Shown here: piece after piece, positions 13,978-56,239 of the stretch
How the letters are laid out: every line of letters starts with the position of its first letter
Numbering within the stretch: position 1 is the first letter of the stretch
Source of the DNA: Candidatus Poribacteria bacterium
GTDB taxonomy: Bacteria > Poribacteria > WGA-4E > WGA-3G
Reading direction: 5' to 3'
Assembly (NCBI GenBank): GCA_963665235.2
Contig: CAXXLX010000001.1
Coordinates: 3,520,001-3,584,000, forward strand
DNA: 64,000 nt
The notes under the pieces: model-generated
Told to the model about the DNA's origin: nothing
The model's input: only the letters and a program-made list of their open reading frames with translations
Database searches by the model: none
Translations under genes and position numbers: made by a program

Positions 13978-14330
13978 ACCCAAGTTGCTACTTATAAGTT
14001 TTTAGACCTGGAAACACCGTCTTTAATGAAAATATGCTGATAATTAGCTAATATTTGTCCCGTTCACTTCCAATTCGCACACAAATATGCACAATCTGGA
14101 AGATTATGCTACTACAAATATGCACAATCTGGAAGATTATGCTACTACAAATATGCACAATCTGGAAGATTATGCTACTACAAATATGCACAATCTGGAA
14201 GATTATGCTACAAATACAAATATGCACAATCTGGAAGATTATGCTACTACAAATATGCACAATCTGGAAGATTATGCTACTACAAATATGCACGATCTGG
14301 AAGATTATGCTACTATGTGGCAACTTAGGT
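13978..14330. mobile_element. MITE family 2 carrying 7 tandem ~33-bp hairpin units
   Basis: TIRs ACCCAAGTTGC / GCAACTTAGGT; 7-bp flanking direct repeat TATATTA; second copy at 56088-56239. Confidence 0.85.
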
Positions 14331-14418
14331 TATATTATAGAGATATGTCAATATGTTTAATCTGACCCGTTAAGTTTTTATAGATATTTCCTAACTGCAA
14401 CTAACCCTATTGGCGAGC

Positions 14419-15360
14419 CTAAAGCCCCTCATAAATAATATTGAGAACGAGTGTGCCGACAATCTCTAAACTTTTCGGGCTGCATTTATCCACTGTGTCT
14501 TCAAGCGTGTGCCAGTGTGGATAATCGAAGTCAATGATATTGACCATCGGTATGCCTGCCCTGATTAACGGCACATGGTCATCCATCACTGCGGGCCCTA
14601 ATTTGCGTTGAAATGGAGCTAAACCGAGCTTCTCTGCACGTTGCCAGATTGCTGACGCAAGTTGACTGTTTGCCTGCCAAGAGAATTTTTCTATCGGTAT
14701 TTGTAAATCTTTATCACCTATCATGTCCAAAAGGATGCCGTAGTCCGGTCTCCATTTTCCCATGTTTTTCGCGAAATATCGAGAACCGAGGAACATTTGG
14801 TCGGTTGTTTTTCCGTAATCTTCACCGTCAAATAGGATAATAACAATTCTACGTGGCGGGGGTTTCTCTTTTAGCATTCGTGCGATTTCGAGTAAAACTG
14901 CTACCCCTGACGCGCCATCATTCGCGCCGAGGATGGGTTCGCGTTGCTTCTCAAGATTCGGGTCTCTATCTGCACAGGGGCGCGTGTCCCAATGTGCAGC
15001 GAGCAGCAGTGTCTCGCGATGGTCCCCGCCAAATTCCGCGATGATGTTGTTCATGTGCAACGTTATCCGTTGCGGCGGAACACTGTTGCTATCTACCTCC
15101 GATGTGTAGGGTTGAAGCACCACGGTATCAGCATATTTCTTGAGTTCCGTGAAAAGGTACGCTTGGGTTTTCTGGTGTGCGTCTGACCCCGGGGGGCGCG
15201 GGCCAAATTCACACTGCTTTTCCAAGAAAACAAACGCGCGTTGTCCATCGAAGCGAGGGTGTTCCCCCTCAATAGGCGCGCTATTTGATTCAACACATGT
15301 GGAGGCGATACCACAGTAACAGAGAATAGTAATGATGGCAGTAAATTGTATAAATTTCAT
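14419..15360 (-). CDS. M28 family peptidase (glutaminyl cyclase-like), exported
   Basis: AHWDTR, GANDGASG, FDGED, DDH and WHT motifs; signal peptide. Confidence 0.9.
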   Translation of the reverse strand: MKFIQFTAIITILCYCGIASTCVESNSAPIEGEHPRFDGQRAFVFLEKQCEFGPRPPGSDAHQKTQAYLFTELKKYADTVVLQPYTSEVDSNSVPPQRITLHMNNIIAEFGGDHRETLLLAAHWDTRPCADRDPNLEKQREPILGANDGASGVAVLLEIARMLKEKPPPRRIVIILFDGEDYGKTTDQMFLGSRYFAKNMGKWRPDYGILLDMIGDKDLQIPIEKFSWQANSQLASAIWQRAEKLGLAPFQRKLGPAVMDDHVPLIRAGIPMVNIIDFDYPHWHTLEDTVDKCSPKSLEIVGTLVLNIIYEGL

Positions 15361-15381
15361 CGGTCAACCCGGTCTAGGAAA

Positions 15382-15981
15382 TTAGACTGTGCGCCTCCCT
15401 TCCAATGCTTTCGCGAGCGTTACCTCGTCAATGTACTCCAAATCTCCCCCGACAGGGATACCGTGGGCGATTCGGGTGACGGTTACCTGAAACGGTTCCA
15501 ATTGTTGCGTAAGGTAGAGGGCTGTCGCTTGTCCCTCTGTGTTCCAATTCGTAGCAAGGATAATCTCTTTAACGGTGCCGTTGTGTACGCGCCCGAGGAG
15601 GGACTCCATTCTCAGGGAGTCCGGGCCGATACCGTCTAAAGGGGATAGAACGCCCCCGAGGACATGATAGAGTCCGTTATGACTTTCGGTGCGTTCGATT
15701 GCCCAGAGGTCATCGGATTCTTCGACGACACATATAACTTGTTGGTTCCGTCTTGGGTTTGAACAGATTTTACACGGATTGATGTCCGTGATAGTGCCAC
15801 ATATTTTGCAATCCGACAAGTTTTTTTTAACTTCCAAAATCGCTTCAGCGATTTGGGTGGTCTCATTCTCCGGGAGCTTTAGCATAAAAAATGCCAAACG
15901 TTGCGCGGTTTTTGGACCGACTGTCGGAAGTTTTTGGAGCTGTAGGATGAGCCGCTCCAACGGTTGCGGATAGCCTTGCAT
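15382..15981 (-). CDS. recR: Recombination mediator RecR
   Basis: LPTVGPKTAQRLA, C4 zinc finger and YHVLGG TOPRIM motif. Confidence 0.97.
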   Translation of the reverse strand: MQGYPQPLERLILQLQKLPTVGPKTAQRLAFFMLKLPENETTQIAEAILEVKKNLSDCKICGTITDINPCKICSNPRRNQQVICVVEESDDLWAIERTESHNGLYHVLGGVLSPLDGIGPDSLRMESLLGRVHNGTVKEIILATNWNTEGQATALYLTQQLEPFQVTVTRIAHGIPVGGDLEYIDEVTLAKALEGRRTV

Positions 15982-16129
15982 GTTTTCGCCAATTCTTTAG
16001 TTTGAAGGGTTGTCGGTTTATCTCAGATGCGTCCGTTGCTAAGTGCCAATGGAGCTGCTGAAGTCGGCACCGTGTCCGTTTAGAAATCGAACCTTGCGGT
16101 TCCAGTTCCGGCAGTTGAGATGTGAACCC

Positions 16130-16438
16130 TTACGGCAGTCCAGGAAGTTTGAGCCCACCGGTCAGTTTGCTCATCTCCTCAGACATCAATTCTTGGGATC
16201 GTTGCAACGCTTCATTGACAGCGGCGACGACTAAATCTTCAAGCATTTCGGTGTCGTCTGGGTCGACCACTTCTGGTGTAATACGAAGTGAGACAAGCTC
16301 TTGCTGCCCGTTGACGACTGCTGTGACCATCCCACCGCCGACGTTTGCCTCGATAGTCTGGTTAGCGAGTTCTTCTCGAATTTCAAGCATGCGCTTTTGC
16401 ATCTGCTGTGCCTGTTTCATCAAGTCATTCATTTTCAT
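16130..16438 (-). CDS. ybaB: YbaB/EbfC nucleoid-associated protein
   Basis: MKQAQQMQ..GGGMV..MLEDLVVAAVNEA; located between dnaX and recR. Confidence 0.95.
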   Translation of the reverse strand: MKMNDLMKQAQQMQKRMLEIREELANQTIEANVGGGMVTAVVNGQQELVSLRITPEVVDPDDTEMLEDLVVAAVNEALQRSQELMSEEMSKLTGGLKLPGLP

Positions 16439-16486
16439 AATAATAAAATAGGTTCCGGTTCTGAAAAAAGGACCGGATGTTTCTCC

Positions 16487-18256
16487 TTATTGGGTTTCTA
16501 CAATTGTTGCGTCAAAGAGTGCAAGCACCGGTCTCAGCTGTTCATCCTCCGCGGCTTGCCGTCTACGCATCATTGGGGTTGTTCTCATCTCTTTTTCAGA
16601 TGTTTCGGAGCTCTCCTTGGTTTGTGCAATGCCTTCCTGTTTAACAAGTTTAACGTCTATCGTTTCGCCAACGATTTTTGTAAAAGCGGTATTGATAATT
16701 TGTTTCGCTTCATCGTTCGCCAATTCGTCAAACATTGTTGGGGAGCACGCGATTTTAATCTGATTGTGGCCGTTTAGCACTGGCACTGCATCCTTAAACA
16801 GTACATAGTTTAGCTTTGCCGGGAGTTGCGGTCTCACCTCTTTTTCCCAAATAGACTCCAACTCGGTCGTTAAATCCCGGACGCTTTGGGGCTCGGATGC
16901 GACCGTGTTTGGGACAGCCTCATTCGGTTCCGGCACGGCTTGCTGGTCGGAATGAGACACAGTGCCTGAGGTGGATGGCTCCCGGGGGGTGTATGCGATT
17001 TCGCTAGGAGGTACCACCGTTTCCCGCGTGTAGGGCTCCGGGAGTGTAGCCTGCGCCACCGATTCTGATGCTACAGCGGCACTGTCAATTTTCTGCTCTA
17101 AGGCCACCAATTTATTGACAATTTCCTCAAGTTGAATTCCCTCTTTAAGTGAGTTGAGCTGAATCAGTGCGTTTTCAAGTTGCAGTTGCGGGTACCCGTA
17201 CTGTTTGATGTCACTGTTAGTGTGCATCAAGATTTTGATAATTCGGGAGAGCCGGTCTACTGAAATCTGTTGTGCTTTCTGCTTGAGCGCGGGTAGCTCA
17301 GATTTTGGGCTCTGGATAAGGTCATCTAGCGTATTGTCAATTGTGAGGAGCCGGATGTCCCGAAAATAGGCAATCAGTTGATGAAGGCATTGGACTAAAT
17401 TGGTGCCCTGTTTAGAAAGTTTGTTTAAGGTTACCAGCCCGTTAGTGAGGTTCCGCTCGCCAATTGCTTCGGTCAGTTCGTGAAGGAGAAAGCTGGAGCT
17501 GAGCCCGAGCGTTTCTTCAACAGCGGACACCGTCAAATTTTTTCCAGCGGAGGCAACCAATCGTTCTAGGAGGTTTTCGGCATCCCGAAGGCAGCCTTCA
17601 GATTGGCGAGCGATGAGTGAGAAAACCTCACCTTCTGCTGAAATATCTTCATCGTCGGATATGAGTTGTAAACGTGCGGTTATCTGCTCAGGAGTTAGGT
17701 GCCGGAAGTCAAAATCTTGACAACGCGAGGTGATGGTTTTCGGAATTTTTCCGTGCTCGGTAGTCGCCATAATGAAAATGACATGCGGGGGAGGCTCTTC
17801 AAGTGTTTTTAAAAGCGCGTTGAACCCATCGGTCGTCAACATGTGAACTTCATCGATGATATAAACCTTATACTTACAAGCTGCGGGGGAGAGTTTGACG
17901 TTTTCACGGAGGTCACGGATTGTGTCAATTCCGCGATTGGAAGCAGCGTCCATCTCTATTACATCAAACGAGGTCCCATCTGAAATGTCCTTACAGAAGA
18001 CGCACGCGTTGCACGGTTCTGCAACGGTGACAGGCCCTAAGTCGGTGTCTTGTGTGCGATTCGGACAGTTGACAGCTTTGGCAAAGAGCCGCGCGACTGT
18101 CGTTTTCCCAGTGCCTCTCGGTCCCCAGAAAAGGTAGGCGTGGCCGAGGCGTTCGGACCGAATTTGGTTTTGTAGCGTGGTAGTCACGTGTGCTTGTCCA
18201 ACAACATCGCGGAAGTATTGAGGGCGCCATTTTTGGGCAAAGACTTCATAAGACAT
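16487..18256 (-). CDS. dnaX: DNA polymerase III subunit gamma/tau
   Basis: KWRPQYF, GPRGTGKT, EMDAASNRG and IIDEVHML motifs. Confidence 0.97.
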   Translation of the reverse strand: MSYEVFAQKWRPQYFRDVVGQAHVTTTLQNQIRSERLGHAYLFWGPRGTGKTTVARLFAKAVNCPNRTQDTDLGPVTVAEPCNACVFCKDISDGTSFDVIEMDAASNRGIDTIRDLRENVKLSPAACKYKVYIIDEVHMLTTDGFNALLKTLEEPPPHVIFIMATTEHGKIPKTITSRCQDFDFRHLTPEQITARLQLISDDEDISAEGEVFSLIARQSEGCLRDAENLLERLVASAGKNLTVSAVEETLGLSSSFLLHELTEAIGERNLTNGLVTLNKLSKQGTNLVQCLHQLIAYFRDIRLLTIDNTLDDLIQSPKSELPALKQKAQQISVDRLSRIIKILMHTNSDIKQYGYPQLQLENALIQLNSLKEGIQLEEIVNKLVALEQKIDSAAVASESVAQATLPEPYTRETVVPPSEIAYTPREPSTSGTVSHSDQQAVPEPNEAVPNTVASEPQSVRDLTTELESIWEKEVRPQLPAKLNYVLFKDAVPVLNGHNQIKIACSPTMFDELANDEAKQIINTAFTKIVGETIDVKLVKQEGIAQTKESSETSEKEMRTTPMMRRRQAAEDEQLRPVLALFDATIVETQ

Positions 18257-18400
18257 GCGAAAACCTTAGAGGGACAGAGATAGAAATTTACTCTCACTAC
18301 GATGGCGAGGTAGTATGAACGTTCCAATCCAAATATTACCTATATTAAATAGGCAGGACGTACCACAACACCCCACCTCTACACTCAGGCAGTGGATACT

Positions 18401-18670
18401 GGCTATGCACCCGGGGTTGACAAGCCTTTCCAAGCGTTGCCCATGTCGTTGGCTCCGGCCAGGCTACCTTGCGTCACACTATAAAACTTATCTGCCGCTG
18501 CTTCTTTCCAGACCTGACGGGGTTCAACAAGCTATAGTTGCTCAAGACCCAGCCTTCAACGCTACGTGCATGGGACAGTCCTTACAAAGACAGGCCGCAT
18601 ACCGGGAATTCAGTCCTGCTATAGCGGATTGCAGGTGCAGGGCACCGCTACCTCCCCACCTAGCATAACC
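18401..18670 (-). ncRNA. ffs: Large-type bacterial SRP RNA (with Alu domain)
   Basis: 5' GCTAGGTGGGGAGGTAGCGGTGCCCTGCACCTGCAATCCGCT; helix 8 TCAGGTCTGGAAAGAAGCAGC; complementary ends; upstream of dnaX. Confidence 0.92.
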
Positions 18671-18699
18671 AAGCTGTTAAATGTATTTATCGGATGTTA

Positions 18700-19135
18700 T
18701 ACCATTTTTATTAATTATTCTATCATTACCGGTTGTTAGAAATGAAACAAAGAACGGAAGACCCAAACTGGAAGTTTATGCTACAATAAAGCACACAAAC
18801 TGGAAGTTTATGCTACAATAAAGCACACAAACTGGAAGTTTATGCTACAATAAAGCACACAAACTGGAAGTTTATGCTACAATAAAGCACACAAACTGGA
18901 AGTTTATGCTACAATAAAGCACACAAACTGGAAGTTTATGCTACAATAAAGCACACAAACTGGAAGTTTATGCTACAATAAAGCACACAAACTGGAAGTT
19001 TATGCTACAATAAAGCACACAAACTGGAAGTTTATGCTACAATAAAGCACACAAACTGGAAGTTTATGCTACAATAAAGCACACAAACTAAAAGTTTATG
19101 CTACAATAAAGAGACATTTTCAATTAGAAATGGTA
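18700..19135. mobile_element. MITE family 1 carrying 11 tandem 32-bp units
   Basis: Ends TACCATTT / AAATGGTA; TTA target duplication; unit CACACAAACTGGAAGTTTATGCTACAATAAAG. Confidence 0.88.
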
Positions 19136-19186
19136 TTAGATAGTTCCGACAATAGGCGGTACGGCTGGCGTACCGCAACAAAAAAA

Positions 19187-19278
19187 TGGCGGAGAGAGTG
19201 GGATTCGAACCCACGGTACTGCTTAACAGCACACATGATTTCCAGTCATGCCAGTTCAACCAACTCCTGCATCTCTCC
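19187..19278 (-). tRNA. tRNA-Ser(GGA)
   Basis: Cloverleaf with long variable arm, anticodon loop CTGGAAA, encoded CCA. Confidence 0.93.
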
Positions 19279-19341
19279 GATACGCTCCGGTAGGGAGCAC
19301 ATACTGCGCATCACCCTACAAATATCTCTAAGAAAATGGAA

Positions 19342-19414
19342 TGGAGCAGACGGGAGTTGAACCCGTGACCTCATCCGTGCGAGGGATGCGCTCTCCCAAC
19401 TGAGCTACTGCCCC
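19342..19414 (-). tRNA. tRNA-Ala(CGC)
   Basis: GGGGCAG acceptor with G3:U70 pair, anticodon loop CTCGCAC. Confidence 0.92.
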
Positions 19415-19448
19415 AAAAACTTCGAAAACGGACGCTAGAAAAATTCAA

Positions 19449-19533
19449 CGGAGAGAGTGGGATTCGAACCCACGGTGACTTGCGCCACAACAGTTTTCGA
19501 GACTGTCCAGTTCAACCACTCCTGCATCTCTCC
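19449..19533 (-). tRNA. tRNA-Ser(CGA)
   Basis: Anticodon loop CTCGAAA, long variable arm, GTTCGAATC T-loop. Confidence 0.92.
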
Positions 19534-19567
19534 CTAGTGTTATAGAAGACTTTGGATTTTTTAGGTA

Positions 19568-20017
19568 TTAACGTCGTTCCATAAAAAAAGATTTCAATAA
19601 CGTGCTGCTCTCTTCTGCTAAAATACCGCTTACCAATTCGACTTGATGGTTCAATCGTTCATCTTGAAGGATGTTGTAGAGGCTGCCTGCGGCTCCCGAT
19701 TTCGGATCGGATGTAGCATAAACAACCCGCGGAATACGGGCAAGAACTATCGCCCCTGCACACATTGGACACGGCTCCAAGGTGACATATAGGGTCGTAT
19801 CGCTCAAACGCCAGTCGCCAATTTTTTGGGAAGCAGTCTGTATCGCCAGTATTTCGGCGTGTGCAATAGGATTGCCGGAATGCTCCCGCAGATTATGGGC
19901 AGCAGCGAGTTGCATATCTGCTTTCACAATGACTGCACCGACAGGCACTTCACCCTTCTTCCCTGCTTGTTGTGCTAATTCGAGGGCTTGCCCCATCCAA
20001 AAGGAATCGATGTCCAA
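19568..20017 (-). CDS. tadA: tRNA adenosine(34) deaminase
   Basis: GEVPVGA, AHAE and TLEPCPMCAGA motifs. Confidence 0.95.
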   Translation of the reverse strand: MDIDSFWMGQALELAQQAGKKGEVPVGAVIVKADMQLAAAHNLREHSGNPIAHAEILAIQTASQKIGDWRLSDTTLYVTLEPCPMCAGAIVLARIPRVVYATSDPKSGAAGSLYNILQDERLNHQVELVSGILAEESSTLLKSFFMERR

Positions 20018-20082
20018 TTTTTCTGCCTTTGTCCATACCCATGCAAAATGTGCATGGGTGCCAACCCGGGTGTAATTGAGAA

Positions 20083-20156
20083 AGCGCCTGAGAGGATTCG
20101 AACCCCCGCCCTTCTGATCCGTAGTCAGATGCTCTAATCCACTGAGCTACAGGCGC
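20083..20156 (-). tRNA. tRNA-Arg(ACG)
   Basis: Anticodon loop CTACGGA. Confidence 0.93.
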
Positions 20157-20168
20157 GCCTTCAAAAAA

Positions 20169-20253
20169 CGGAGAGGGTGGGATTCGAACCCACGATGACT
20201 TACGCCATAACTGCTTAGCAGGCAGTCCAGTTCAACCACTCCTGCACCTCTCC
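20169..20253 (-). tRNA. tRNA-Ser(GCT)
   Basis: Anticodon loop CTGCTAA, long variable arm. Confidence 0.92.
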
Positions 20254-20270
20254 CTATTTAATTTAAACGA

Positions 20271-20358
20271 TGGCGGTGGGAGTAGGATTCGAACCCACGG
20301 TGACTTGCGCCACAACGGTTTTCAAGACCGCCGCTTTCGTCCACTCAGCCATCCCACC
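20271..20358 (-). tRNA. tRNA-Ser(TGA)
   Basis: Anticodon loop CTTGAAA, encoded CCA. Confidence 0.93.
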
Positions 20359-20382
20359 AATCTTTTCCATTTACTGCTTTTA

Positions 20383-20411
20383 ATTATAACACAAATTAAA
20401 CGGTTTGTCAA
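20383..20411 (-). promoter_or_regulatory. Consensus sigma70 promoter of the tRNA/tadA operon
   Basis: TTGACA-N17-TATAAT on the minus strand. Confidence 0.85.
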
Positions 20412-20563
20412 GCAAATCGACGCAAATATTTAAAAAAATTCGGGACAGACGCAAATTGATAGTGCAAACGTTTGTGGTAAGAGGTTTGGACTTTGTGTTA
20501 CGGAGACCTTCGGAAAATACCCACCTCTATGTTTGCAATTTTCAGGGTGTACGGCCCAAAAAA

Positions 20564-21223: not shown

Positions 21224-21378
21224 TATGCAGCGCGAACGCCGTTTTAAGTGAAGGGGCTGTCCAAAAAAACTTTAATTTAAATTTATACACCTTTCGGCAG
21301 AAAAAGTTCCATTTTTATATTGTTAGACATGTTTATCCGTTTTTTGTTCATTTTTTTCCCCTTTTCCCCCCTTTCCAC

Positions 21379-21865: not shown

Positions 21866-21879
21866 CCTTTCCACGCGAT

Positions 21880-21908
21880 TTGCGAAAATCCGGTATTTCT
21901 GATAAAAT
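21880..21908 (+). promoter_or_regulatory. Putative native promoter upstream of murJ
   Basis: TTGCGA-N17-TAAAAT. Confidence 0.45.
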
Positions 21909-21970: not shown

Positions 21971-22182
21971 TACCATTTCTAATTGGAAATGTCTCTTTAT
22001 TGTAGCATAAACTTCCAGTTTGTGCACTTTCTTGTAGCATAAACTTCCAGTTTGGGCACTTTATTGTAGCATAAACTTCCAGTTTGGGCACTTTATTGTA
22101 GCATAAACTTCCAGTTTGTGTCTTCCGTTCTCCGTTTGATTTCTAACAACCGGTAATGATAGAATAATTAATAAAAATGGTA
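21971..22182. mobile_element. MITE family 1 (inverted orientation), 4 units
   Basis: Same ends as 18700-19135 in reverse complement; TAA duplication at 21968-21970 and 22183-22185. Confidence 0.88.
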
Positions 22183-27207: not shown

Positions 27208-28602
27208 TACCATTTTTATTAATTATTCTATCCTTACTAAAGTTTTATTCTAGATTTCAGGCAGCCTTGTCAAAAGGCAGGGCGTTATCTTGCGTTTCCT
27301 CGGGCAGAATATTCTGCGAGTTTGTTTTATCTTCGGAACTCGCAGAAAATCGGCGGCACAAAATCTGTGCTTGAAGATAAGCGACCCGCAGTCCTTGTGT
27401 GACTTAGGTTTATACCAATGAATGCCTAGTTTTTCACAGACCTGCTCAACACTGATAAGTTTTTGTGTCGTTTCCGGAATAGAAAAGATTAGCTTTGTTA
27501 GAGATGCAACGAAACTCAGTTGTAGGAAGCGATTGATGCTTTTTCGGGACTTGACCTGATTGAAACCGAAGTGTTGCTTTGCGTCGCGAAAGGCGGCATC
27601 TGGTATTGTGTGGTATGTCAAGCGTCAAATCACGGTAAGGTTTTGACTGTCTGTTTCTCGGATGACAACTATTTATTTTTGTTGCTATCTGTGATGCCAC
27701 TTGATACACAAATGGAGACGAAAAGCGGCGGATGTTTAACGGACGGCCGGGGCCTCGACGTTTCGGGACCATTTTCGCCCGACACAAGATATTGTTTGAA
27801 TGCCAAAACCGTCTCAAACATCGACGGGCGAACCCTCTATCAAAGATGATTAGCCCCGCAGGTATCTTGGAGACGATAAATCAAGACGGACTGTCTTCGG
27901 CACAACAAGCCTGACCCACACAGGAAAAGCCATTGCCAAACGCAGCAAACTATGAAGTTGATATGCTACTAAAAAAATGCACATAACGGTTTTCAAAGCA
28001 GACGTGTGGTCATAAACATAAACCCAATCCAGAAATAGTTTATTGCTCAATTTTGCCGCAAAGCGTCAATGCACAAACCGGGACAGTTTACTTCGTTCCG
28101 AAGACACTTGATTGATAAAAAACCCTGGGTATGGCAGCAATAAACCCAAACATCGCTTGGAAAAGCGAAGTTTTGTTGGTTTAAACAACTAAAATGTGAT
28201 AGAATATAAGCAAAAAAGAAGGTTCTCCAAGAAAATTTAATTTATTTTAAAATGAGAGACATTGTCCATCTTAATTCTTAAAATTGTTCAACTTTAGAAA
28301 TGGAGAATAACATGACAATGCTACTACAAAAACCAAACCTGGAAGTTTATGCTACTACAAAAATGCACAAACTGGAGTTTATGCTACTACAAAAATGCAC
28401 AAACTGGAAGTTTATGCTACTACAAAAATCGCTACTACAAAAATGCACAAACTGGAGTTTATGCTACTACAAAAATGCACAAACTGGAAGTTTATGCTAC
28501 TACAAAAATGCACAAACTGGAAGGTTCTGGAAGTTTATGCTACTACAAAAATGCACAAACTGGAAGTTTATGCTACAAGAAAGAGTTCAATTAGAAATGG
28601 TA
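27208..28602 (-). mobile_element. Decayed IS701-like DDE element, likely parent of MITE family 1, with ~7 hairpin units
   Basis: Same ends TACCATTTTTATTAATTATTCTATC / CAATTAGAAATGGTA; TAA duplication; internal transposase fragments. Confidence 0.75.
27250..28230 (-). pseudogene. Frameshifted DDE transposase (IS701/IS4-like)
   Basis: Fragments WVYVYD..ALKT, FPVWVRL, IIFDRGF, HNILCRAK-like, GPGRP and AFRDAKQHFGF..RFLQLSF lie in different frames. Confidence 0.7.
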
Positions 28603-36760: not shown

Positions 36761-38113
36761 TTACGCCTCTATATCCTCTATGGCTTGCGCTTCTAACGCT
36801 TGTGTATGGATTGAATCTAGGCGTTCGAGACTGCGCATTCTCCCGATTTTACGGGTGAGTGTATCGGGAATATCGCCAAAACGGAAGTGTAACACTTTCA
36901 GGATAGCCTCCCGCTTCGCACGAACCACACCGCGCTGTTCACCGCGCTGTTCACCGCGCTGTTCACCGATTTCTATACCTTGTTCCATCAACTCGTGTGC
37001 TATTGTGCGTTTCATTGAATTTACCTCCAAAGTAGGGGTATGTTTATCAACAAGTTCTATCAACGCTTCATGCTCCGCCGGAGGCCGGCGATACATGATA
37101 AGCGATAGAATATATTGAATTGCCTCACGTCTCTCAGCCGCCTGGTCCGCAGGAAGCGTATCCGTGTGCATTAGCATATCAACTAAGACACGACTTAGCT
37201 CCTCTGGGCTTGCGTGCTCTTTTTGCAGCACCGTAAGCAGCCAACCTATCAGATGTTCTGTCTGCGTTAGCACTTCCACCTCTGTCTCTTTGACATCCAG
37301 CTGCACCGTCTCAAACTTTGGAATAAAACGTTCCAGCTCCTTGGGGAGGTCCATGAGTGCTTCCAGGGTCAGCGGAACGTTCCAGCTCTGGTCGCCTGTG
37401 TAAAAGAGTATCGGCAGAATCGGGGACAAGCGGCGTTCACTTTTGGGAGGCTTGTCTTTCTCCCATCGTCTGATTTCTGCGTCCCATATCGATACCATGT
37501 AATACCATTCCTAATTGAAAATGTCTCTTTGTAGTAGCATAAACTTCCAGTTTGTGCTTTGTAGTAGCATAAACTTCCAGTTTGTGCTTTGTAGTAGCAT
37601 AAACTTCCAGTTTGTGCTCTTTATTGTAGCATAAACTTCCAGTTTGTGCTCTTTATTGTAGCATAAACTTCCAGTTTGTGCTTTGTAGTAGCATAAACTT
37701 TTAGTTTGGGTCTTCCGTTCTCCGTTTCATTTCTAACAACCGGTAATGATAGAATAATTAATAAAAATGGTATAAGATAGAAAACGAAATCCCATCGTCT
37801 CGTCCACCGTCGATTGGTGTTCGATATGGATATGTATTATGACTTCATCGGTTTTATCGGCTGTTTGAAAAGGCGCACGATACAAAATATCCGCTTCTCG
37901 TTCCCGTAAGTCTCTCGGAATGAAACTCGTGCTAAGCCGCTCAAGCCCGCTAAAATTGATACGGGGGGCAAGGTCAGGGACAGCAATTTCTACCAACCCC
38001 TGAACGTTTACCGGTCTTTGAAGCAACCAGCGCAGGCTTCTGTCTGAAAAGTGTGCGACCTTTCCACCGAGTAAATCATTGAGAGCGGTTGTCTCTTTCG
38101 TTTCCTCTGCCAT
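36761..38113 (-). pseudogene. Rpn family nuclease/putative transposase interrupted by a MITE
   Basis: N-half (ADILY..HIEHQS..MGFRFLSY) and C-half (MVSIW..) rejoin in frame once 37503-37772 and one TAA are removed. Confidence 0.88.
37503..37772. mobile_element. MITE family 1 (inverted), 6 units
   Basis: Family 1 ends; TAA duplication at 37500-37502 and 37773-37775. Confidence 0.9.
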
Positions 38114-48957: not shown

Positions 48958-49036
48958 GATAGATTACCTCTCTAAAGTTAATGTAAAGTATGCGTTGGGG
49001 ACACGATGGAAAACCGCGCCGGCATTGCATATATTG

Positions 49037-51388
49037 CTAGAATCTATTATCCAGACTTAGGCTTATATTGAAGCCTGGGGCGTTCACACCGGAGCCGTGC
49101 GACCGATATCGCCGATCGAGTAGGTTTTCGACGGCTAACATCAAGCGGGTGTAACCGAAGAGATTAATCCCACCGTGCACGTTGAGTGTCCACCATCCGG
49201 GGGTGCCAGCATCTATGGCAGCTCCGTTGGAGTCAAATTTCACTTCGGCTGGGTCGCGTGTTTTTCCCTGTATCCGTGGGTCGCGGATGTCGCTCCGGTT
49301 GAGTCGTCTCTGTGCTGCGGCAGCACGGACAAATAGCGTTGCCCAAAACGGTGTATCTTCGGGCTCCCACTGGACTCCGACAACCCCGTTCAATGGGGGT
49401 TCTCTACGCGTACGTGCTTCCCAAGGGTTCTCCGGATTAGGGGCGACCCCGTTAATTAATAAGACCTCGCCGCGCAGCAAGGCTGCGTTCCCGTAGACCG
49501 AAAAGGCGGAATCGAGCGGAATTAATCCGGATAGTTCAACCCCCTGGAATTGTGCCTGATCGACGTTGTCAAACACGAGTACGTCAATTCCTTCGTATTC
49601 ACTAATCAGGTCTTGATGGAGTTGTGGTATTTCTCCTGCTTCGTACGCCTCTTGTACAGGAATACGTGTAACTAGCCCGTTGACGCGGCTGTGGAATAGG
49701 GTGAGGGTGCCCCGGAAATGGGAGTGTCTCGCCTTAATGCCGCCCTCAATTGTCCATGAGGTTTCCGCTTCAAGGTCCGGACTGGGTGCTGTGACCCCTT
49801 CATTGGTGACCTCTACTGCTGTTGTATCGTTCAAGGAGGGGGCGCGGAAGGCTGTGGCGACACTACTTACAAAGTTCAGCGAATTTGTTAAGCCGATAAC
49901 GAGCCCCGCACTTCCGGTTAAACTGCTGTCAAATTCACTGAATTTATCAAAACTCTTATCTCGGAGGGAGAGGTCTGCCTGGGTTTGATACAACGTTGCA
50001 CGCCCGCCAAGGATGAGTTCAACGCGCTCATGTATCGTAATTTCATCCTGAATGTATAGACTTGCATCCCAGAATCGAGAACCGTTGATGAAACGTCCGA
50101 GGTTTTCGTCGATATCTGCTTTTCCTGTCTCAAGGTCTGTTTTGATGGTCTGACTCTGCAAAATATCTAGGTAAAATTCACCGCCGCTAGTGATGCGTTG
50201 ACGCGGGAGAGCAGTGCTAACGGTTTGTGCACTTAAACCGATAGTGTTTACCGTATCGTATCGGTGTCTACGAGAGGTGGCATCCCGTTTAATCTCATTG
50301 CGTCCCTCTTTTTGTCGGTGATAGGAGGCAGTGAGGCGGAATAGGTCAACGTTGCTGGTTTGAGGATGGAGAAGATAATCGAGGTAGAGGAGGTCTCGGT
50401 TTTGCGGGTCGAAATAGAATTCGTCAAACTCTTGAGGTGCGATTTTATCGTAGCGGGGGGTTTTCGGTTGTCGCCACATCTGATAAGCGACGTTTAGGGT
50501 GCTTGTATCGTTGAGTTGATAGGCGATTTTTGCATCGGCATCGTAGGCACGCCATCCAAGCGGGCCTTGGGTGTCAATAAGCCATTCATCCGGGATTTTA
50601 TCTTTTGACAATCCTCTCACTTCATCAGAGTCATAAAGTTTCACACCGGTTGGGATTTCAGTGACAATTTCAAATTTTCGGTTTTTATAGTGGTGGTCGT
50701 ATCCGTTGCCTGGGTTTATGTCGCCATAGAAGCGCATTCCGCCGCCGACACTGAATCCAAAGTCCCCCCGGTTGGCTGTTATCTCTAATCTACCGAGCCG
50801 TTCCTGGGTGGCAGTTGTGTAGCGTGCAAGGAAGCGTGGCTGGACTTCCCATGTTTCCTGGGATGGGTCAAGCGGTATCGACTTCGTAAAGAAACTGATA
50901 ACGCCTCCTATCGCGCCGCTGCCGTACAACATGGAACTGGAGCCGAGTAGTACCTCTGCTCTGCCTAGCGTTTCCGGGGCAATGGTTGCTGCGTATTGGT
51001 TCGGTCCTGAACGGAAGGTTGAATTATTGAGGCGGACCCAATCGACCTGTATCAATGTCTGGTAGCCTGTTAAACTTCGGAGCATGGGTGAGCCCTGTCC
51101 GACTGTCGTCTGTTGTGCTATAACGCCAACGACGTTGCGAAGTAGGTTGGAGGCGATATCCGCGTTACCCCGTTCAAGCTGCTTTAGATTGAGAACAGTG
51201 ATGCTGCTCGGGGTTTTAAAGATGTCTTTTTCGACACGGATGGCTGTCACTGTTACCGCTGGCAGTTCGAAAACTTTTTCGCTAGATATAATTTCATCGG
51301 CAGTATGACCCTCCGCGCTTGCGTAGTGGCTCCAACTTGCAAATAGTGCTAAACTTATGACCGAAAAAAGATAAATGGCCTTCTGCAT
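49037..51388 (-). CDS. TonB-dependent outer membrane receptor
   Basis: Signal peptide, VTVTA TonB box, plug domain, AFRAPSL, ENLLDRRY, terminal Phe. Confidence 0.93.
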   Translation of the reverse strand: MQKAIYLFSVISLALFASWSHYASAEGHTADEIISSEKVFELPAVTVTAIRVEKDIFKTPSSITVLNLKQLERGNADIASNLLRNVVGVIAQQTTVGQGSPMLRSLTGYQTLIQVDWVRLNNSTFRSGPNQYAATIAPETLGRAEVLLGSSSMLYGSGAIGGVISFFTKSIPLDPSQETWEVQPRFLARYTTATQERLGRLEITANRGDFGFSVGGGMRFYGDINPGNGYDHHYKNRKFEIVTEIPTGVKLYDSDEVRGLSKDKIPDEWLIDTQGPLGWRAYDADAKIAYQLNDTSTLNVAYQMWRQPKTPRYDKIAPQEFDEFYFDPQNRDLLYLDYLLHPQTSNVDLFRLTASYHRQKEGRNEIKRDATSRRHRYDTVNTIGLSAQTVSTALPRQRITSGGEFYLDILQSQTIKTDLETGKADIDENLGRFINGSRFWDASLYIQDEITIHERVELILGGRATLYQTQADLSLRDKSFDKFSEFDSSLTGSAGLVIGLTNSLNFVSSVATAFRAPSLNDTTAVEVTNEGVTAPSPDLEAETSWTIEGGIKARHSHFRGTLTLFHSRVNGLVTRIPVQEAYEAGEIPQLHQDLISEYEGIDVLVFDNVDQAQFQGVELSGLIPLDSAFSVYGNAALLRGEVLLINGVAPNPENPWEARTRREPPLNGVVGVQWEPEDTPFWATLFVRAAAAQRRLNRSDIRDPRIQGKTRDPAEVKFDSNGAAIDAGTPGWWTLNVHGGINLFGYTRLMLAVENLLDRRYRSHGSGVNAPGFNISLSLDNRF

Positions 51389-51455
51389 TTTAGATATTCT
51401 CCTCTGAATTTGATTTTACGGCAGGTGTTACTGCGTCATATTTATCTATTCTATA

Positions 51456-51471
51456 TGCAATTTGTGTGCCA
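51456..51471 (-). promoter_or_regulatory. sigma54 (-24/-12) promoter
   Basis: TGGCAC-ACAAA-TTGCA about 70 bp upstream of the receptor start. Confidence 0.8.
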
Positions 51472-51510
51472 ATAAATTTGTGGGGGAATTGGCAGGTTTT
51501 GCGCGAGATG

Positions 51511-51630
51511 TGTTCATTTTCTGGACAGTGAGATTCTTGAAATTGGCGATATGATGTCCACGAACCTTTACACTGTCTAATCTCAAGCCCTTATGTCACA
51601 ATTTGAACAACATTGTTCAGATTCTGGACA
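51511..51630. promoter_or_regulatory. Putative enhancer-binding-protein sites
   Basis: TGTTCATTTTCTGGACA (51511), TGTCACAATTTGAACA (51594) and TGTTCAGATTCTGGACA (51614): TGT-N10/11-ACA. Confidence 0.55.
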
Positions 51631-51736
51631 GCTGCTGTGCATTTTTGTATCCGTTCGCGGGAATGAAATTAATTCCTTGCTTTTTGTTGCATGTCTATGG
51701 TAACCTAAAGAGAAAAAGTTGAATGTGGGAGTATTT

Positions 51737-52738
51737 ATGGTTAAACAGAAATTAAATTTTGGATTTATCGGTTGTGGTGGCAATGCACGCGGTCATGGAC
51801 GTAGTGTTTCTAAGGCTGAGAACGTGGAAATTGTTGCCCTCGCCGATCCGAGTGAAAACGCTCTTAAAGCGTTCAAAGAGAACGTCGGTTTAGACGATTC
51901 AGTCCGGACCTACGCGGACCACGTTGAGATGCTATCGGCTGCGAAACCGGATGCAGTCGTCATTAGCTCACCGCACGGGCTCCATTTTGAGCATATAATG
52001 GCTGCGCTCGATGCTGGTTGTCACGTGCATACCGAAAAACCGATGGTCTGCACGGTGGACCACGCCAAACAGGTCATGGCGAAAGTGGAGGAGACCGGTC
52101 TACACCTGATGATCGGTTATCAACGGCATTTAAGCCCTACCTATCAATACTGCCGACAAGTAGTTCAGAGTGGTGAGCTCGGGCGCGTTAACTTCGTTGC
52201 TGCGCATCAATCGCAGAATTGGTACCGGAATCAGCAGGGAAAATGGCGGCAAGACCCGTTCCTCGGCGGTGGGGGACAACTGAACGACTCCGGTAGCCAT
52301 CTCATAGATATTCTGTTATGGGTGTTGGAAGCTAGCCCGGATACAGTGTTTGCGATGATAGATAACTTGGACATTGAGGTGGATGTGCTCACTGCAATGT
52401 CAATAAAATTTGATACGGGGGCTTTGTGCAACATCAGTATTGTTGGACACGCTCACGGGGGTGTGCAGGAAGATTTTTCTATCTGGATGGAGGACGGCGC
52501 GCTCTTTTTACGCGCCGGGCAGCTGTATCGTCAAGGACAAGGTGGTAAACCTGCCCCCGTTGATAGTGCTGAGCTGCCGAAAGGGGGCAATAAGGATGCC
52601 GCTTTCATTGAACTAATTCGGGGTGAACGGACAGAAAACCCAATCGGGGTGGAAAACGGTCTGCGCGTTATTCAATTGACAGAAGCCGCGTGGCAGTCTG
52701 CTGACCTCGGACGACCTGTTAAGGTTGATTTGAGCTAG
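51737..52738 (+). CDS. Gfo/Idh/MocA oxidoreductase
   Basis: GFIGCGG, EKPM and GGGQLNDSGSH motifs. Confidence 0.9.
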   Translation: MVKQKLNFGFIGCGGNARGHGRSVSKAENVEIVALADPSENALKAFKENVGLDDSVRTYADHVEMLSAAKPDAVVISSPHGLHFEHIMAALDAGCHVHTEKPMVCTVDHAKQVMAKVEETGLHLMIGYQRHLSPTYQYCRQVVQSGELGRVNFVAAHQSQNWYRNQQGKWRQDPFLGGGGQLNDSGSHLIDILLWVLEASPDTVFAMIDNLDIEVDVLTAMSIKFDTGALCNISIVGHAHGGVQEDFSIWMEDGALFLRAGQLYRQGQGGKPAPVDSAELPKGGNKDAAFIELIRGERTENPIGVENGLRVIQLTEAAWQSADLGRPVKVDLS

Positions 52739-52749
52739 TTTGTCCCTAT

Positions 52750-53081
52750 GAGTGCATAAAGTTTCTGTACTTATCAGGACTTACGCAAATTTAGCAGGAT
52801 GCTTGTAGGGGCGGGGTCTCCCCGCCCGCTAAGTACCCCTCTAAATCCCATTATCTATCGACTTTAGCAACGCGCTGCGTAAGTCCTACTTATGTTCCAT
52901 CTTTTTTGTCTGAATGCCCGTCGCATTTGGGCGAGTACGCCGCAAATCGCGGATTAGCGCGGAGAACGCGGAGAACGCGGAGTTTAAGAGACATAGTCTC
53001 TTTAGAACGGGATTGTGAGCTCTTAGGATATCGCGTGCGAAGCACGCTCCTACAGAAGAACGTACGAAAACTTTACACACC
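52750..53081. mobile_element. MITE family 4 containing a nested family 3 MITE
   Basis: Ends GAGTGCATAAAGTTT / AAACTTTACACACC; flanked by TGTCCCTAT direct repeat. Confidence 0.7.
52775..52888. mobile_element. MITE family 3 (114 bp)
   Basis: TIRs CAGGACTTACGCA / TGCGTAAGTCCTA; 5-bp duplication CTTAT. Confidence 0.85.
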
Positions 53082-53150
53082 TGTCCCTATCTTAAGAATT
53101 TGATAATTTTTAAAATTTGTGGTATATTTTGCAAAACTCTGGAATAGTTA

Positions 53151-53597
53151 TACCATTTTTATTAATTATTCTATCATTACCGGTTGTTAGAAATCAAACG
53201 GAGAACGGAAGACACAAACTAAAAGTTTATGCTACAATAAAGAGCACAAACTGGAAGTTTAGGCTACAATAAAGCACACAAACTGGAAGTTTATGCTACA
53301 ATAAAGCACACAAACTGGAAGTTTAGGCTACAATAAAGCACACAAACTGGAAGTTTAGGCTACAATAAAGCTACAATAAACACAAACTGGAAGTTTAGGC
53401 TACAATAAAGCACACAAACTGGAAGTTTATGCTACAATGGAGAACGGCACAAACTGGAAGTTTATGCTACAATAAAGCACACAAACTGGAAGTTTATGCT
53501 ACAATAAAGCACACAAACTGGAAGTTTAGGCTACAATAAAGCACACAAACTGGAAGTTTATGCTACGATAAAGAGACATTTTCAATTAAAAATGGTA
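53151..53597. mobile_element. MITE family 1, 11 units
   Basis: Family 1 ends; TTA duplication. Confidence 0.88.
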
Positions 53598-53654
53598 TTA
53601 GTAGGGACATGAGGGGAACAGCCGGTGAATGCGGGGCACCACGGGAGAATTTAA

Positions 53655-54416
53655 TTGCTTGATGTCCAAAATCTCTGTAAATCTTTTGACAAAAAATCGT
53701 TTCTGATGGAACTGACATTTCAGATGGCAGCCGGGGAGGTACTTTTTCTGGTCGGTGAAAACGGGGCTGGCAAAACGCTTCTGCTGAACATTTTGGCGAC
53801 CTTGGTTGAACCGACATCAGGCAGTGTCACTATTGATGGTATGGATGCCTTTTCAAACTTGAAACAGGTGCGGCCCTTGATAGGATATATTCCGAGTGGG
53901 TTTGATGGATACCCGGCTTTATCTGTCGTTGATTATCTCAATTTTTTCGCCGCTGCATACAAATTAGATAAGCAGGAACGTGCCGCTGCAATTGATGCTG
54001 TGCTGGAATTAATGGACATTGAGCAGCTCCGTGACATCAAAATCGGTATTTTGTCAACGGGAGAACGTCAAAGGCTCCTGTATGCGAAAACTTTTTTGCA
54101 CGAACCGATGTTATGGCTCATTGATGAACCGTTAGCAGCACTAGACCCGCGCGGGCAAATTGAGATGGTCGAGTTAATCGGTGAACTGAAGGCAATAGGA
54201 AAAACGATTGTAATTGCTACTAATCGTCTCGACGATGTACAAAAGTTGAATGCGGTTGCTTCTGAGGATAATCTTCTCGGTATTCTTCACGATGGACAGT
54301 TTGCGGTATTCAATACGTTTAGGCAGTTGGAACAGGAAATTAAAGATGCTAATCGTTCAGAAAGCCTTCCAGCGAATTGGTTGATTGAACGTTATTTGGA
54401 GGTTACAAATTTGTAA
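53655..54416 (+). CDS. ABC transporter ATP-binding protein
   Basis: GENGAGKT, LSTGERQR and IDEP motifs. Confidence 0.88.
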   Translation: MLDVQNLCKSFDKKSFLMELTFQMAAGEVLFLVGENGAGKTLLLNILATLVEPTSGSVTIDGMDAFSNLKQVRPLIGYIPSGFDGYPALSVVDYLNFFAAAYKLDKQERAAAIDAVLELMDIEQLRDIKIGILSTGERQRLLYAKTFLHEPMLWLIDEPLAALDPRGQIEMVELIGELKAIGKTIVIATNRLDDVQKLNAVASEDNLLGILHDGQFAVFNTFRQLEQEIKDANRSESLPANWLIERYLEVTNL

Positions 54417-55189
54417 TGGCTGATATTGGAAAATTTTTTCAGGAGAATGGATACTATTTCGCAAAAGGGGTCTATTCCCCCGAAGAGCTCAAATTAATGG
54501 AGCACGACTTCGATCGGGTGGTGGACCAATTGTTGAAAAGTGATGAGAACGTCAATGCACGTTGGGGCGGCAGATTGATGGATGCCCTTGATGGCGGGCA
54601 GTCTGTTATTATTCATACGCATAATATACAGAACTATTCTGCTGTGTGGATGCAGGCGTTTCTGCAAGAGAAATTTCTTGACGCAACGGAAGCTATCCTC
54701 GGTCCGGATATCATGCTTCACCATTCCAAACTTTTCTGTAAACCGCCGGAGGAGGGCTCCCCTTTCCCGATGCATCAGGACTGGCAGTATTTTCCATCCG
54801 TTAAAGACACGATGATGGCTGCTATCATCTATGTGTCGGATGCGACCGATGAGATGGGGTGTGTCCGCGTGTACCCCGGCTCTCATAAGGAGCTCGGGCG
54901 GACCGGTGGCATGATGGGTCGTGGACAGAACGAGGAAATTACGGAGCGGTACCCGATTGAGAAGGCAACCGTTTTAGAGGCGGAAGCGGGGGATGTGCTT
55001 TTCTTTAGCTATTTCACATTGCACGGCTCCATGCCGAACCGTTCTAACCGGACGCGAAAAAGTGTGCTCGTCCAAATGCATGCAGGTGATGATCAGATTG
55101 AGGCTGAAAATAGACACACTAATGTTCAGTTAGTCCTTCGGGGTTGGAATCATTTCGCAACCCGCTCTTCTGTCGGAAGCATTCGTTAA
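54416..55189 (+). CDS. Phytanoyl-CoA dioxygenase (PhyH) family protein
   Basis: HQD, PGSHK and HGSMPNRSNRTR motifs. Confidence 0.92.
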   Translation: MADIGKFFQENGYYFAKGVYSPEELKLMEHDFDRVVDQLLKSDENVNARWGGRLMDALDGGQSVIIHTHNIQNYSAVWMQAFLQEKFLDATEAILGPDIMLHHSKLFCKPPEEGSPFPMHQDWQYFPSVKDTMMAAIIYVSDATDEMGCVRVYPGSHKELGRTGGMMGRGQNEEITERYPIEKATVLEAEAGDVLFFSYFTLHGSMPNRSNRTRKSVLVQMHAGDDQIEAENRHTNVQLVLRGWNHFATRSSVGSIR

Positions 55190-55235
55190 GGATGCAATTG
55201 GGATATCACACTTGTAGGAACGAAGAAGCATGTTA

Positions 55236-55758
55236 TACCATTTTTATTAACAGGACTTACGCAAATTTAGCAGAAACCTCGTAGGGGCGGGGTCCCCCCG
55301 CCCGCTAGGTCTCGCTCTAGATCCCACTATCATTAGGGTTTATCAACGCGCTGCGTAAGTCCTGATTAATTATTCTATCATTACCGGTTGTTAGAAATGA
55401 AACGGAGAACGGAAGACACAAACTAAAAGTTTATGCTACAAGAAAGTGCACAAACTGGAAGTTTATGCTACAAGAAAGTGCACAAACTGGAAGTTTATGC
55501 TACAAGAAAGTGCACAAACTGGAAGTTTATGCTACAAGAAAGTGCACAAACTGGAAGTTTATGCTACAAGAAAGTGCACAAACTGGAAGTTTATGCTACA
55601 AGAAAGTGCACAAACTAAAAGTTTATGCTACAAGAAAGTGCACAAACTGGAAGTTTATGCTACAATAAAGAGCACAAACTAAAAGTTTATGCTACAATAA
55701 AGTGCACAAACTGGAAGTTTAGGCTACAATAAAGAGACATTTTCAATTAGAAATGGTA
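55236..55758. mobile_element. MITE family 1, 10 units, with a nested family 3 MITE
   Basis: Family 1 ends; TTA duplication at 55233-55235 and 55759-55761. Confidence 0.88.
55251..55364. mobile_element. MITE family 3 (114 bp), nested
   Basis: Perfect TIRs CAGGACTTACGCA / TGCGTAAGTCCTG; 5-bp duplication ATTAA. Confidence 0.88.
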
Positions 55759-55791
55759 TTAGTAGGTATCTCTTAGTCAGAGGGATTTAAG

Positions 55792-56088
55792 ATGGAAGAT
55801 CAAACAATTCTCAGCAAGGAACTTATCAAACAGAGGCTGATAGACAATCGAGAAACCTTGCGAAAATACGGTGTTAAACGGATCGGTTTGTTCGGCTCTT
55901 ACGTGCGAGGGACAGCAACTGCCGGAAGCGACATTGATTTCATCGTTGAGCTCGAAAGATTGACCCTTCGTGACTACATGGGATTAGCTCTTTTTCTCGA
56001 AGAGCTGTTTAAGAAGGAGGTTGATCTGGTTACTGCTACCTCTGTCAAACCCCGTCTAAAACCCTATATCGAAAAAGAGATAGAATAA
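55792..56088 (+). CDS. MntA-like minimal nucleotidyltransferase (antitoxin); last 5 codons cut off by a MITE
   Basis: GLFGSYVRG..SDID motif; native end YVKEY* lies beyond the MITE. Confidence 0.88.
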   Translation: MEDQTILSKELIKQRLIDNRETLRKYGVKRIGLFGSYVRGTATAGSDIDFIVELERLTLRDYMGLALFLEELFKKEVDLVTATSVKPRLKPYIEKEIE

Positions 56089-56239
56089 CCTAAGTTGCCA
56101 CATAGTAGCATAATCTTCCAGATTGTGCATATTTGTGTCCAAATTGGAAGTGAACAAGACAAATATTAGCTAATTATCAGCATATTTTCATTAAAGACGG
56201 TGTTTCCAAGTCTAAAAACTTATAAGTAGCAACTTGGGT
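56088..56239. mobile_element. MITE family 2 (inverted), single hairpin unit
   Basis: Reverse complement of the 13978-14330 backbone; TAGAATA duplication. Confidence 0.88.

Follow-up and report, generated by a model that had tools for sequence, protein, structure and literature searches.

The window analysed here, a stretch of 64,000 nucleotides (G000:C1:3520001-3584000) from the 5.31-Mb genome of a Candidatus Poribacteria bacterium, a probable sponge symbiont (4 contigs, 47.6-47.9% G+C), contains eight MITEs (transposable elements of the miniature inverted-repeat type), each of which carries between one and eleven copies of the same 24-nt hairpin unit with a GTAG head. Six of the elements belong to one MITE family (family 1) and two to another (family 2), and a ninth site, absent from the initial annotation, holds two divergent units in a further context (Table 1). 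The limits of the elements were set by BLAST with the element ends, and the arrays were delimited by Tandem Repeats Finder together with direct reading; all eight elements of the initial annotation were recovered in this way, at the places and with the unit numbers given there. One family-1 MITE is situated in a cluster of RNA genes. The minus strand at 18403-20358 encodes the signal recognition particle (SRP) RNA and six tRNAs, and the SRP RNA gene (18403-18668) and the first tRNA gene (19190-19278) border the element on either side. As detailed below, the unit is a repetitive extragenic palindrome (REP) that forms an old built-in part of both MITE families and travels with them, and its arrays lengthen and shorten in place.

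The unit is composed of the trinucleotide GTA, a 9-bp stem, a 3-nt TCC loop and the return stem, the G that follows GTA being the first stem base. The GTAG strand, taken as single-stranded DNA, has a folding energy of -5.5 kcal/mol, and none of 200 shuffled sequences folded as well; the opposite strand reaches -4.2 kcal/mol, with an inner mismatch. A census of the whole genome, tolerating up to five substitutions per unit, yielded 1272 units, with GTA at positions 1-3 in 1236 of them. Stem pair 10-18 is A-T in 1138 units and T-A in 127, only seven being unpaired or otherwise composed, and the T-A form goes with family 2; the compensatory A-T to T-A change described for the window therefore holds across the genome. 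Pair 7-21 is a T.G wobble in 1254 of the 1272 units and pairs on the GTAG strand only.

Further covariation was found in related genomes, where 275 hairpins from 187 loci were compared. Here pair 6-22 is A-T in 222 and G-C in 46 hairpins, pair 7-21 is C-G in 159 and T.G in 109, and pair 10-18 is A-T in 197, T-A in 71 and C-G in three, while the loops vary freely. About half of these loci had been retrieved by a pattern in which pair 6-22 was fixed, so that its G-C cases come from the other loci. Altogether, three of the nine stem pairs covary in this genome and its relatives, among copies that are not independent events and in palindromes that can also undergo correction in the DNA itself. The unit qualifies as a GTAG-class REP, being a short palindrome with the unpaired tetranucleotide GTAG at one end, a high and mostly extragenic copy number and compensatory stem changes. 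Its REP-like nature, suspected from the window, is borne out by the GTAG head, the 9-bp stem, the three compensatory pairs and a gene similar to those of REP-associated tyrosine transposases (RAYTs), which the hairpin flanks in relatives.

Mapping of the units, with their flanks and copy numbers, placed them in 259 arrays of 1-26 units, mostly with family-1 or family-2 flanks. The arrays, 259 in total, are head-to-tail throughout and never combine the two strands, i.e., the inverted REPs that constitute the replicating unit of REPINs (REP doublets forming hairpins) were not seen among them. The cumulative GC skew of the chromosome lacks clear turning points against which the orientation of the arrays could be set. 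The steps within arrays measure 32 nt (476 steps), 30 (206), 31 (71), 33 (66) or 27 nt (53). Family-1 signatures stand on both sides of 128 arrays and family-2 signatures on both sides of 47, another 43 and 10 arrays being flanked partly by family 1 and family 2, respectively, mostly due to another element nested in them. The other 31 arrays have different flanks, including at least three further repeated contexts. Single-copy DNA lies on both sides of only two of the 259 arrays, compared with 30 of the 168 clusters of a second, GC-rich REP of this genome, and eight arrays lie inside an open reading frame (ORF) of at least 150 aa, according to crude ORF calls. The reversed pattern had no match in any genome searched, against 1181 matches of the true pattern in this genome. 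A CRISPR array (short palindromic repeats, clustered and set at regular intervals) was considered and rejected: the spacers are 3-11 nt long and mostly identical within an array, not unique and of repeat length.

The carriers are true MITEs of two kinds, with terminal inverted repeats (TIRs) and target-site duplications (TSDs). A 3-bp duplication accompanies 129 of 140 family-1 copies (TAA in 70, TTA in 56) and a 7-bp duplication, mostly TAnnnTA, 38 of 47 family-2 copies, which confirms genome-wide the two unrelated families and the duplications first described in the window. The unit lies at a fixed distance of 31 nt from the left end of family 1 and of 17 nt from that of family 2. Paired family-1 elements hold 1-34 units, the value of 34 and some other high ones representing two neighbouring MITEs paired as one, and a variable tandem repeat between MITE ends is the hallmark of BrickBuilt-type elements. 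No autonomous family-1 partner was found, as all 19 candidates of 600-3500 bp with family-1 ends proved to be MITEs with arrays or nested inserts, and DDE_Tnp_4 had no match in the whole genome. Family 1 also has an insertion hot spot in another repeat, at least about 150 bp long, where the site is the TAA within GTTCGCAAC-TAA-CATAACAG; 16 copies of it are empty and about 25 occupied, in both orientations. Of thirty family-1 pairs with common 40-nt flanks, at first candidates for same-site copies, most were independent insertions into this hot spot in both orientations, and only the six pairs with 400-bp flanks at least 0.9 identical were retained.

Of 24 further genomes in the family, 16 contain the AT-rich unit of the window, in 1-86 copies against 1181 here (some 14-fold the count in the richest relative searched); three other families of the order, represented by 16 genomes, yielded none. 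The named carriers are metagenome-assembled genomes of Candidatus Poribacteria in 79 of the 80 matches listed, and for this reason a cyanobacterial origin of the genome, at first considered on account of its heptamer repeats and MITEs, was discarded. No copy without units exists among 138 paired family-1 elements, and 36 of 46 family-2 elements hold exactly one unit at one fixed place, two holding none. The single unit of family-1-like MITEs in G023 keeps the same offset within an otherwise diverged element, and the family-2-like MITEs of G023 have one unit in the AATCT form. Left ends with GTAGC or GTACC at a fixed distance account for 45 of 57 in G023, 50 of 82 in G013, 47 of 173 in G017 and 11 of 29 in G007, which are lower bounds given a shared limit of two mismatches. 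As both MITE kinds in another genus hold one unit, at the same place and with the same A/T split, a capture of the hairpin by the MITEs, in that direction, would predate the split of the genera.

In the initial annotation, REP-like hairpins were thought to colonise MITEs. As a recent or ongoing step this is not supported, in view of the absence of empty family-1 copies, the fixed place of the unit in relatives and the mere two arrays that stand alone: the hairpin is an old built-in part of the two MITE families, not a current coloniser, and in this genome it travels with its carriers. Inverted hairpin doublets, 8 nt apart, occur in relatives (L028, L032, L034, L036, L040 and L041), the one at L040 within a family-2-like MITE of G021, and stand-alone doublets occur as well. 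A period-31 array in another genus (L042; G021:C40:1-430) has alternating AAACT, AATCT and mixed half-units (AATCT with AGTTT). Single stand-alone units, both intergenic, were also seen on two IMG/VR viral contigs (L205:301-324 and L206:301-324, with loops AAC and GTT), the only matches among the viral contigs scanned.

The Y1 transposase family has thirteen matches in this genome, and the unit nearest to any of them is 1989 bp away. The only RAYT at family level (chromosome 831718-832197, with its flanks L010; NF047646, 135.9 bits, cut-off 80) is bordered by a GC-rich GTAG hairpin of its own, in 5 direct copies on one side and 26 on the other. The genome thus holds an ordinary REP/RAYT pair, the REPs of which are also arranged head to tail. 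There are 450 copies of the GC-rich REP in 168 clusters of 1-26, only three of them mixed-strand, with periods like those of the AT-rich arrays, and it has a compensatory stem variant of its own (GCGTGC/GCACGC against GCGAGC/GCTCGC).

In relatives, the AT-rich hairpin is associated with a different RAYT-like HUH gene of about 228-260 codons, labelled RAYT2 here. We searched 40 genomes of the family with the RAYT model and examined 30 loci for the hairpin: two RAYT2-type loci with scores below the cut-off, L069 and L070, had 12 and 7 matches, a different and higher-scoring RAYT (L047) had two, and the other 27 had none. The RAYT2 of G023 (L069:1276-1959, 228 aa, with an HVH motif) has both the AAACT and the AATCT hairpin forms on both of its sides; it scores 66.9 bits with NF047646 and has no Pfam match. 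The best solved relative of RAYT2 is E. coli TnpArep (4er8, E 2.3e-4). Relatives of RAYT2 are present in 15 of the 40 genomes at E 1e-20 or better. Among 17 RAYT2 loci (14 genomes) of at least 58% identity, 11 have the hairpin, often within 50 bp of the gene, and short direct hairpin arrays flank the RAYT2 genes of relatives; none of three loci at 37-40% identity has it. RAYT2 did not turn up in this genome: tblastn with a limit of E 10 matched only the resident RAYT (35% identity) and a genome search returned nothing. The expectation of a RAYT/Y1 gene flanked by this hairpin holds at 11 of 17 loci in sister genera and not in the genome at hand, where all 13 Y1 matches lie at least 1989 bp from the units and no cognate HUH enzyme was detected. 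The same is true of the REPtron arrangement, a RAYT flanked by the same REP, which was seen for this hairpin in related genomes only. In G017, hairpins lie inside the reading frame of RAYT2 itself (L077:1930-1987, 241 bp before the end of the match), with the same place occupied at L076, L078 and L083. They encode some of a variable segment that separates the HUH motif from the tyrosine region, a segment missing in the G023 protein.

The linkers between units record the history of the arrays. In the 126 arrays with at least four units, 159 kinds exist among 1013 linkers, and the likelihood of identity between two linkers is 0.547 if both belong to one array and 0.023 if they come from different arrays, so the homogeneity within copies and the differences between them, noticed in the window, extend to the whole genome. 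Six pairs of arrays are true segmental duplicates, with 400-bp flanks at least 0.9 identical, and four of these pairs differ in unit number or linker make-up: one has 10 versus 9 units with the same linker, another 2+4 versus 3+5 units around a common nested insert, a third 5 versus 2 units, and the pair that includes the 37503 element has other linkers in equal unit number. The two further pairs have equal units (2 and 2, 3 and 3), one of them differing by 15 bp in length. Array-specific linkers and differing duplicates support the view that arrays lengthen and shorten in place, and thereby the earlier proposal of local expansion after insertion.

The ends of the arrays are informative too. 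The last unit differs from the modal unit of its array at 1.88 positions on average, the inner units at 0.31 and the first at 0.32; last units end in TGGGT or TGTGT in 93 of 106 arrays, and inner units in TGTGC in 504 of 687 cases. The linkers repeat flanks of the single unit, either left (CTTTATT, CTTTCTT, TTTGTA; e.g., CTCTTTATT) or right (TCTT, resulting in period 27). Such flank-derived linkers fit a first duplication between short direct repeats, with slippage or unequal exchange as the presumed later step. In family 2 expansion is rare, 41 of 47 arrays having a single unit.

Taken together, we consider it probable that an old REP module inside two MITEs has been spread by its carriers, in a genome that yielded no RAYT2, and has grown in place. 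The hairpin family would have spread through one family of probable Poribacteria, its partner in sister genera being RAYT2, a gene with such hairpins on both sides. At an early time units, either single or as inverted doublets, would have become fixed inner modules of at least two unrelated TIR/TSD MITEs, the carrier with the 3-bp TWA duplication (family 1) and the one with the 7-bp duplication (family 2). Spread in this genome would proceed by transposition of the carriers, presumably via DDE transposases, of which we identified none. A first duplication may have arisen between the short direct repeats flanking the unit, and replication slippage or unequal exchange between the 27-33-nt periods may account for further growth and for the homogenisation of the arrays. 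The arrays may well lack any host function.

A number of observations weigh against this account. Reads could not check the unit numbers: in short-read contigs of four runs over 18300-19500 no record spans the array, the middle bins of which are without cover because contigs made of units collapse. A transposase was found for neither MITE, family 2 lying outside the search for elements with matching ends, and RAYT2 scores 64.5-75 bits, under the curated RAYT-model cut-off of 80. The closing pair is better in inner units than in the terminal one, which insertion of canonical units would also explain. The resident GC-rich REP, beside its own RAYT, forms head-to-tail arrays of 1-26 with like periods, so that arrays may be a product of RAYT action and not of slippage. 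The dinucleotide CT, the known RAYT cleavage site, is present in 799 of 865 family-1 spacers and in only 5 of 50 spacers of family 2, which is seldom expanded.

These points define the first alternative, in which a RAYT-type HUH nuclease made the arrays, either the resident RAYT acting in trans on any GTAG hairpin or RAYT2 before its loss; single-stranded cutting at the spacer CT and out-of-register rejoining would let an array gain or lose entire units. Same-strand arrays with periods near 30-45 are formed by both REP families present here, 5 and 26 GC-rich units lie next to the RAYT, CT is found in 219 of 221 GC-rich REP spacers as it is in most of family 1, and the CT-poor family 2 is little expanded. 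TnpA-REP enzymes cut at a CT beside the GTAG hairpin, according to the available text of Corneloup 2021 (PMC8266576), and short direct arrays adjoin RAYT2 in relatives. We nevertheless regard this alternative as unlikely. The cognate gene was not found in this genome; CT is weak evidence, since the spacers are T- and C-rich and copies of each other; and family-2 arrays reach 17 units without CT. Besides, flank-derived spacers of 3-11 nt fit illegitimate duplication, and G021 and G013 have arrays or many units and no RAYT2 match.

A host function of the arrays, as protein-binding sites, terminators, RNA stabilisers or sources of processed RNAs of about 32 nt, appears improbable. It could draw on the covariation that conserves the stem across genera, on the wobble pair that is stable on the GTAG strand only and on the one array between an SRP RNA gene and a tRNA gene; contigs of RNA-labelled libraries cover both junctions of this MITE (18700-19135) with no mismatch, which DNA carry-over could also produce. 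Against it, arrays with co-directional neighbour genes run in the same direction in 83 cases and in the opposite one in 74 (p 0.52), and divergent spacers hold 53 arrays and convergent ones 24, both results depending on crude ORF calls and giving no hint of a role tied to one strand. Copy number ranges freely between 1 and 26, the loops take up other elements, the arrays match no Rfam family at gathering score, and many related genomes have few copies of the unit or yielded none.

Scarcely better is the idea that the hairpin is native to the MITEs, for instance as a subterminal structure used in transposition, and that the copies beside RAYT2 are landed MITE fragments. The fixed left-end offsets of 31 and 17 nt and the lack of empty copies agree with it. 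It conflicts with a hairpin common to two families with different ends and target duplications, with hairpins next to RAYT2 that have no MITE ends, with the stand-alone inverted doublets of relatives and with the single units on two viral contigs.

Finally, it is most improbable that the assembly of so repeat-rich a genome produced the copy-number differences artificially: contigs from the short reads of four public runs do collapse inside the array and none spans it, but the assembly has only 4 contigs, the 259 arrays have array-specific linkers and ordered variant units, and arrays occur in other genomes too (L042, L129 and L140). Some contigs of the same runs join the SRP RNA and tRNA genes with 11-22 other letters instead of the MITE and probably derive from relatives without the insertion.

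The coordinates of the elements are collected in Table 1.

Table 1 Hairpin-bearing elements of the window (positions in the window) and associated sites elsewhere in the genome (positions in G000)
Feature	Position	Strand	Array by Tandem Repeats Finder (period, copies)	Remarks
Family-2 MITE, 7 units, AATCT/AGATT variant	13978..14330	-	14081-14315 (33, 7.0)	Linker ATATTTGTA; ends ACCYAAGTTGC; 7-bp duplication TATATTA
Family-1 MITE, 11 units	18700..19135	-	18764-19111 (32, 10.9)	Ends TACCATTT; TTA duplication
Family-1 MITE, 4 units	21971..22182	+	21995-22118 (32, 3.9)	Tandem Repeats Finder and end BLAST
Family-1 MITE, about 7 units	27208..28602	-	28318-28576 (irregular, about 7)	Inner right part replaced by foreign DNA
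Family-1 MITE, 6 units	37503..37772	+	37527-37708 (30, 5.9)	Mixed periods 30 and 32; segmental duplicate elsewhere on the chromosome
Family-1 MITE, 11 units	53151..53597	-	53212-53573 (32, 11.0)	Some units A-to-C at stem position 3 (GCCTAAACT)
Family-1 MITE, 10 units	55236..55758	-	55417-55734 (32, 9.9)	Third small TIR element nested in the MITE end
Family-2 MITE, single unit	56088..56239	+		Unit at 56105-56128; 7-bp duplication TAGAATA
Two divergent units, further context	61516..61706	+		Linker GTTTTTT
Family-1 hot spot, empty	C1:209838, 488558, 1730036			Examples
Family-1 hot spot, occupied	C1:1546896, 2000305, C2:849340			Examples
IS630-like element	C1:1853470-1854710 (L094); C2:852876-855372 (L093)			Nine other ends

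Several of these elements have themselves been invaded or have decayed. About 1.05 kb of non-coding foreign DNA (27240-28300) with no gene-like ORF lies inside the fourth MITE of the window. The third small element nested in the seventh (about 55243-55375) has GGACTTACGCA inverted ends and a G/C-rich palindrome, and a like copy splits an array at G000:C1:2175184-2175316. Direct reading against L040 revealed a decayed inverted unit copy after the single unit of the 56088-56239 element. The first unit at the ninth site is split in its loop by a 125-bp element (61530-61655; ends ATGAAGATTAAT...CTTCAT), which is a short relative or derivative of an IS630-like element found elsewhere in the genome.

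This IS630-like element encodes a 395-aa transposase with DDE_3 and HTH domains and has inverted ends of about 50 nt. It lies in the middle of a hairpin loop at 11 of the 14 ends found, one of these 11 being in the GC-rich REP, and the duplication looks 0-1 bp long by reading; an IS630-like element also occupies one hairpin loop in the segmental duplicate of the 37503 element. The element appears to target GTAG hairpin loops, and with the loops as its landing site the arrays shape further change of the genome. Tobes and Pareja reportedly described, in 2006, insertion sequences that target REPs, and insertion into palindromic units, reportedly by IS1397, is the subject of a paper in J Bacteriol 181:6929. 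Mid-loop insertion likens the present element to such REP-loop-targeting insertion sequences. IS1397 belongs to the IS3 family, whereas the transposase here is IS630-like and its target lies inside a MITE-borne array.

Among known systems, REPtrons, as portrayed in the accessible parts of PMC3733652, PMC8266576 and PMC3116915, share with the present unit the GTAG head, the short perfect or near-perfect stem, the 3-nt loop, the hundreds of mostly extragenic copies, the pairing-preserving stem variants and, in relatives, the hairpin-flanked RAYT-like gene. The Stenotrophomonas REP of 23 nt, with an 8-bp stem and a 3-nt loop, is much like our unit, as far as PMC8266576 describes it in its available text. 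Di Nocera 2013 (PMC3733652), in the portion at hand, mentions Pseudomonas REP clusters reiterated in tandem and, in Anabaena variabilis, many GTAG-15 dimers inside a long palindrome that is never found empty. Unlike in those REPtrons, all 259 arrays here are head-to-tail and none is mixed-strand, the cognate RAYT-like gene was not found in the genome and nearly every copy is inside a TIR/TSD transposon; RAYT2 is also longer than classic RAYTs and scores under the curated cut-off. With REPINs, in what is available of Bertels and Rainey 2011 (PMC3116915), the system has in common the inverted hairpin doublets of relatives and the decayed inverted second copy in family 2, but the form multiplied in this genome is a direct array, not a doublet.

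The closest structural counterpart of the carriers is BrickBuilt of Porphyromonas gingivalis, which the accessible text of Klein 2015 (PMC4596501) presents as a minisatellite-bearing MITE: it has a spacer-free 23-nt repeat in its interior, 19 copies in one strain and a single carrier family. Both are bacterial MITEs with small inverted ends and a tandem core of variable copy number, intergenic and in many copies. In contrast to BrickBuilt, as far as that text goes, the repeat here is a GTAG hairpin with 3-11-nt spacers, is carried by two or more unrelated MITE families and is tied to a RAYT-like gene in relatives. A limited literature search for REPs, MITEs, transposases or tandem repeats in Poribacteria returned, among its 15 best matches, no paper naming Poribacteria.

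REPs are among the commonest bacterial repeats, and their mode of spread and the cause of their clustering are still argued. The present genome offers a natural experiment, with one REP family that has its RAYT and a second that is without one and carried only by MITEs, both arranged head to tail; comparison of the two could show whether clustering needs an HUH enzyme or follows from the replication of hairpin repeats. A bolder reading, which we hold to be doubtful, is that of a REP family freed from its own RAYT, carried by DDE MITEs and multiplied in place, with the resident non-cognate RAYT perhaps driving its growth in trans. If the RAYT does act in this way, through the GTAG head and the spacer CT, a single composite element would be served jointly by an HUH enzyme and by DDE transposases. 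The findings extend REP/RAYT biology to Poribacteria.

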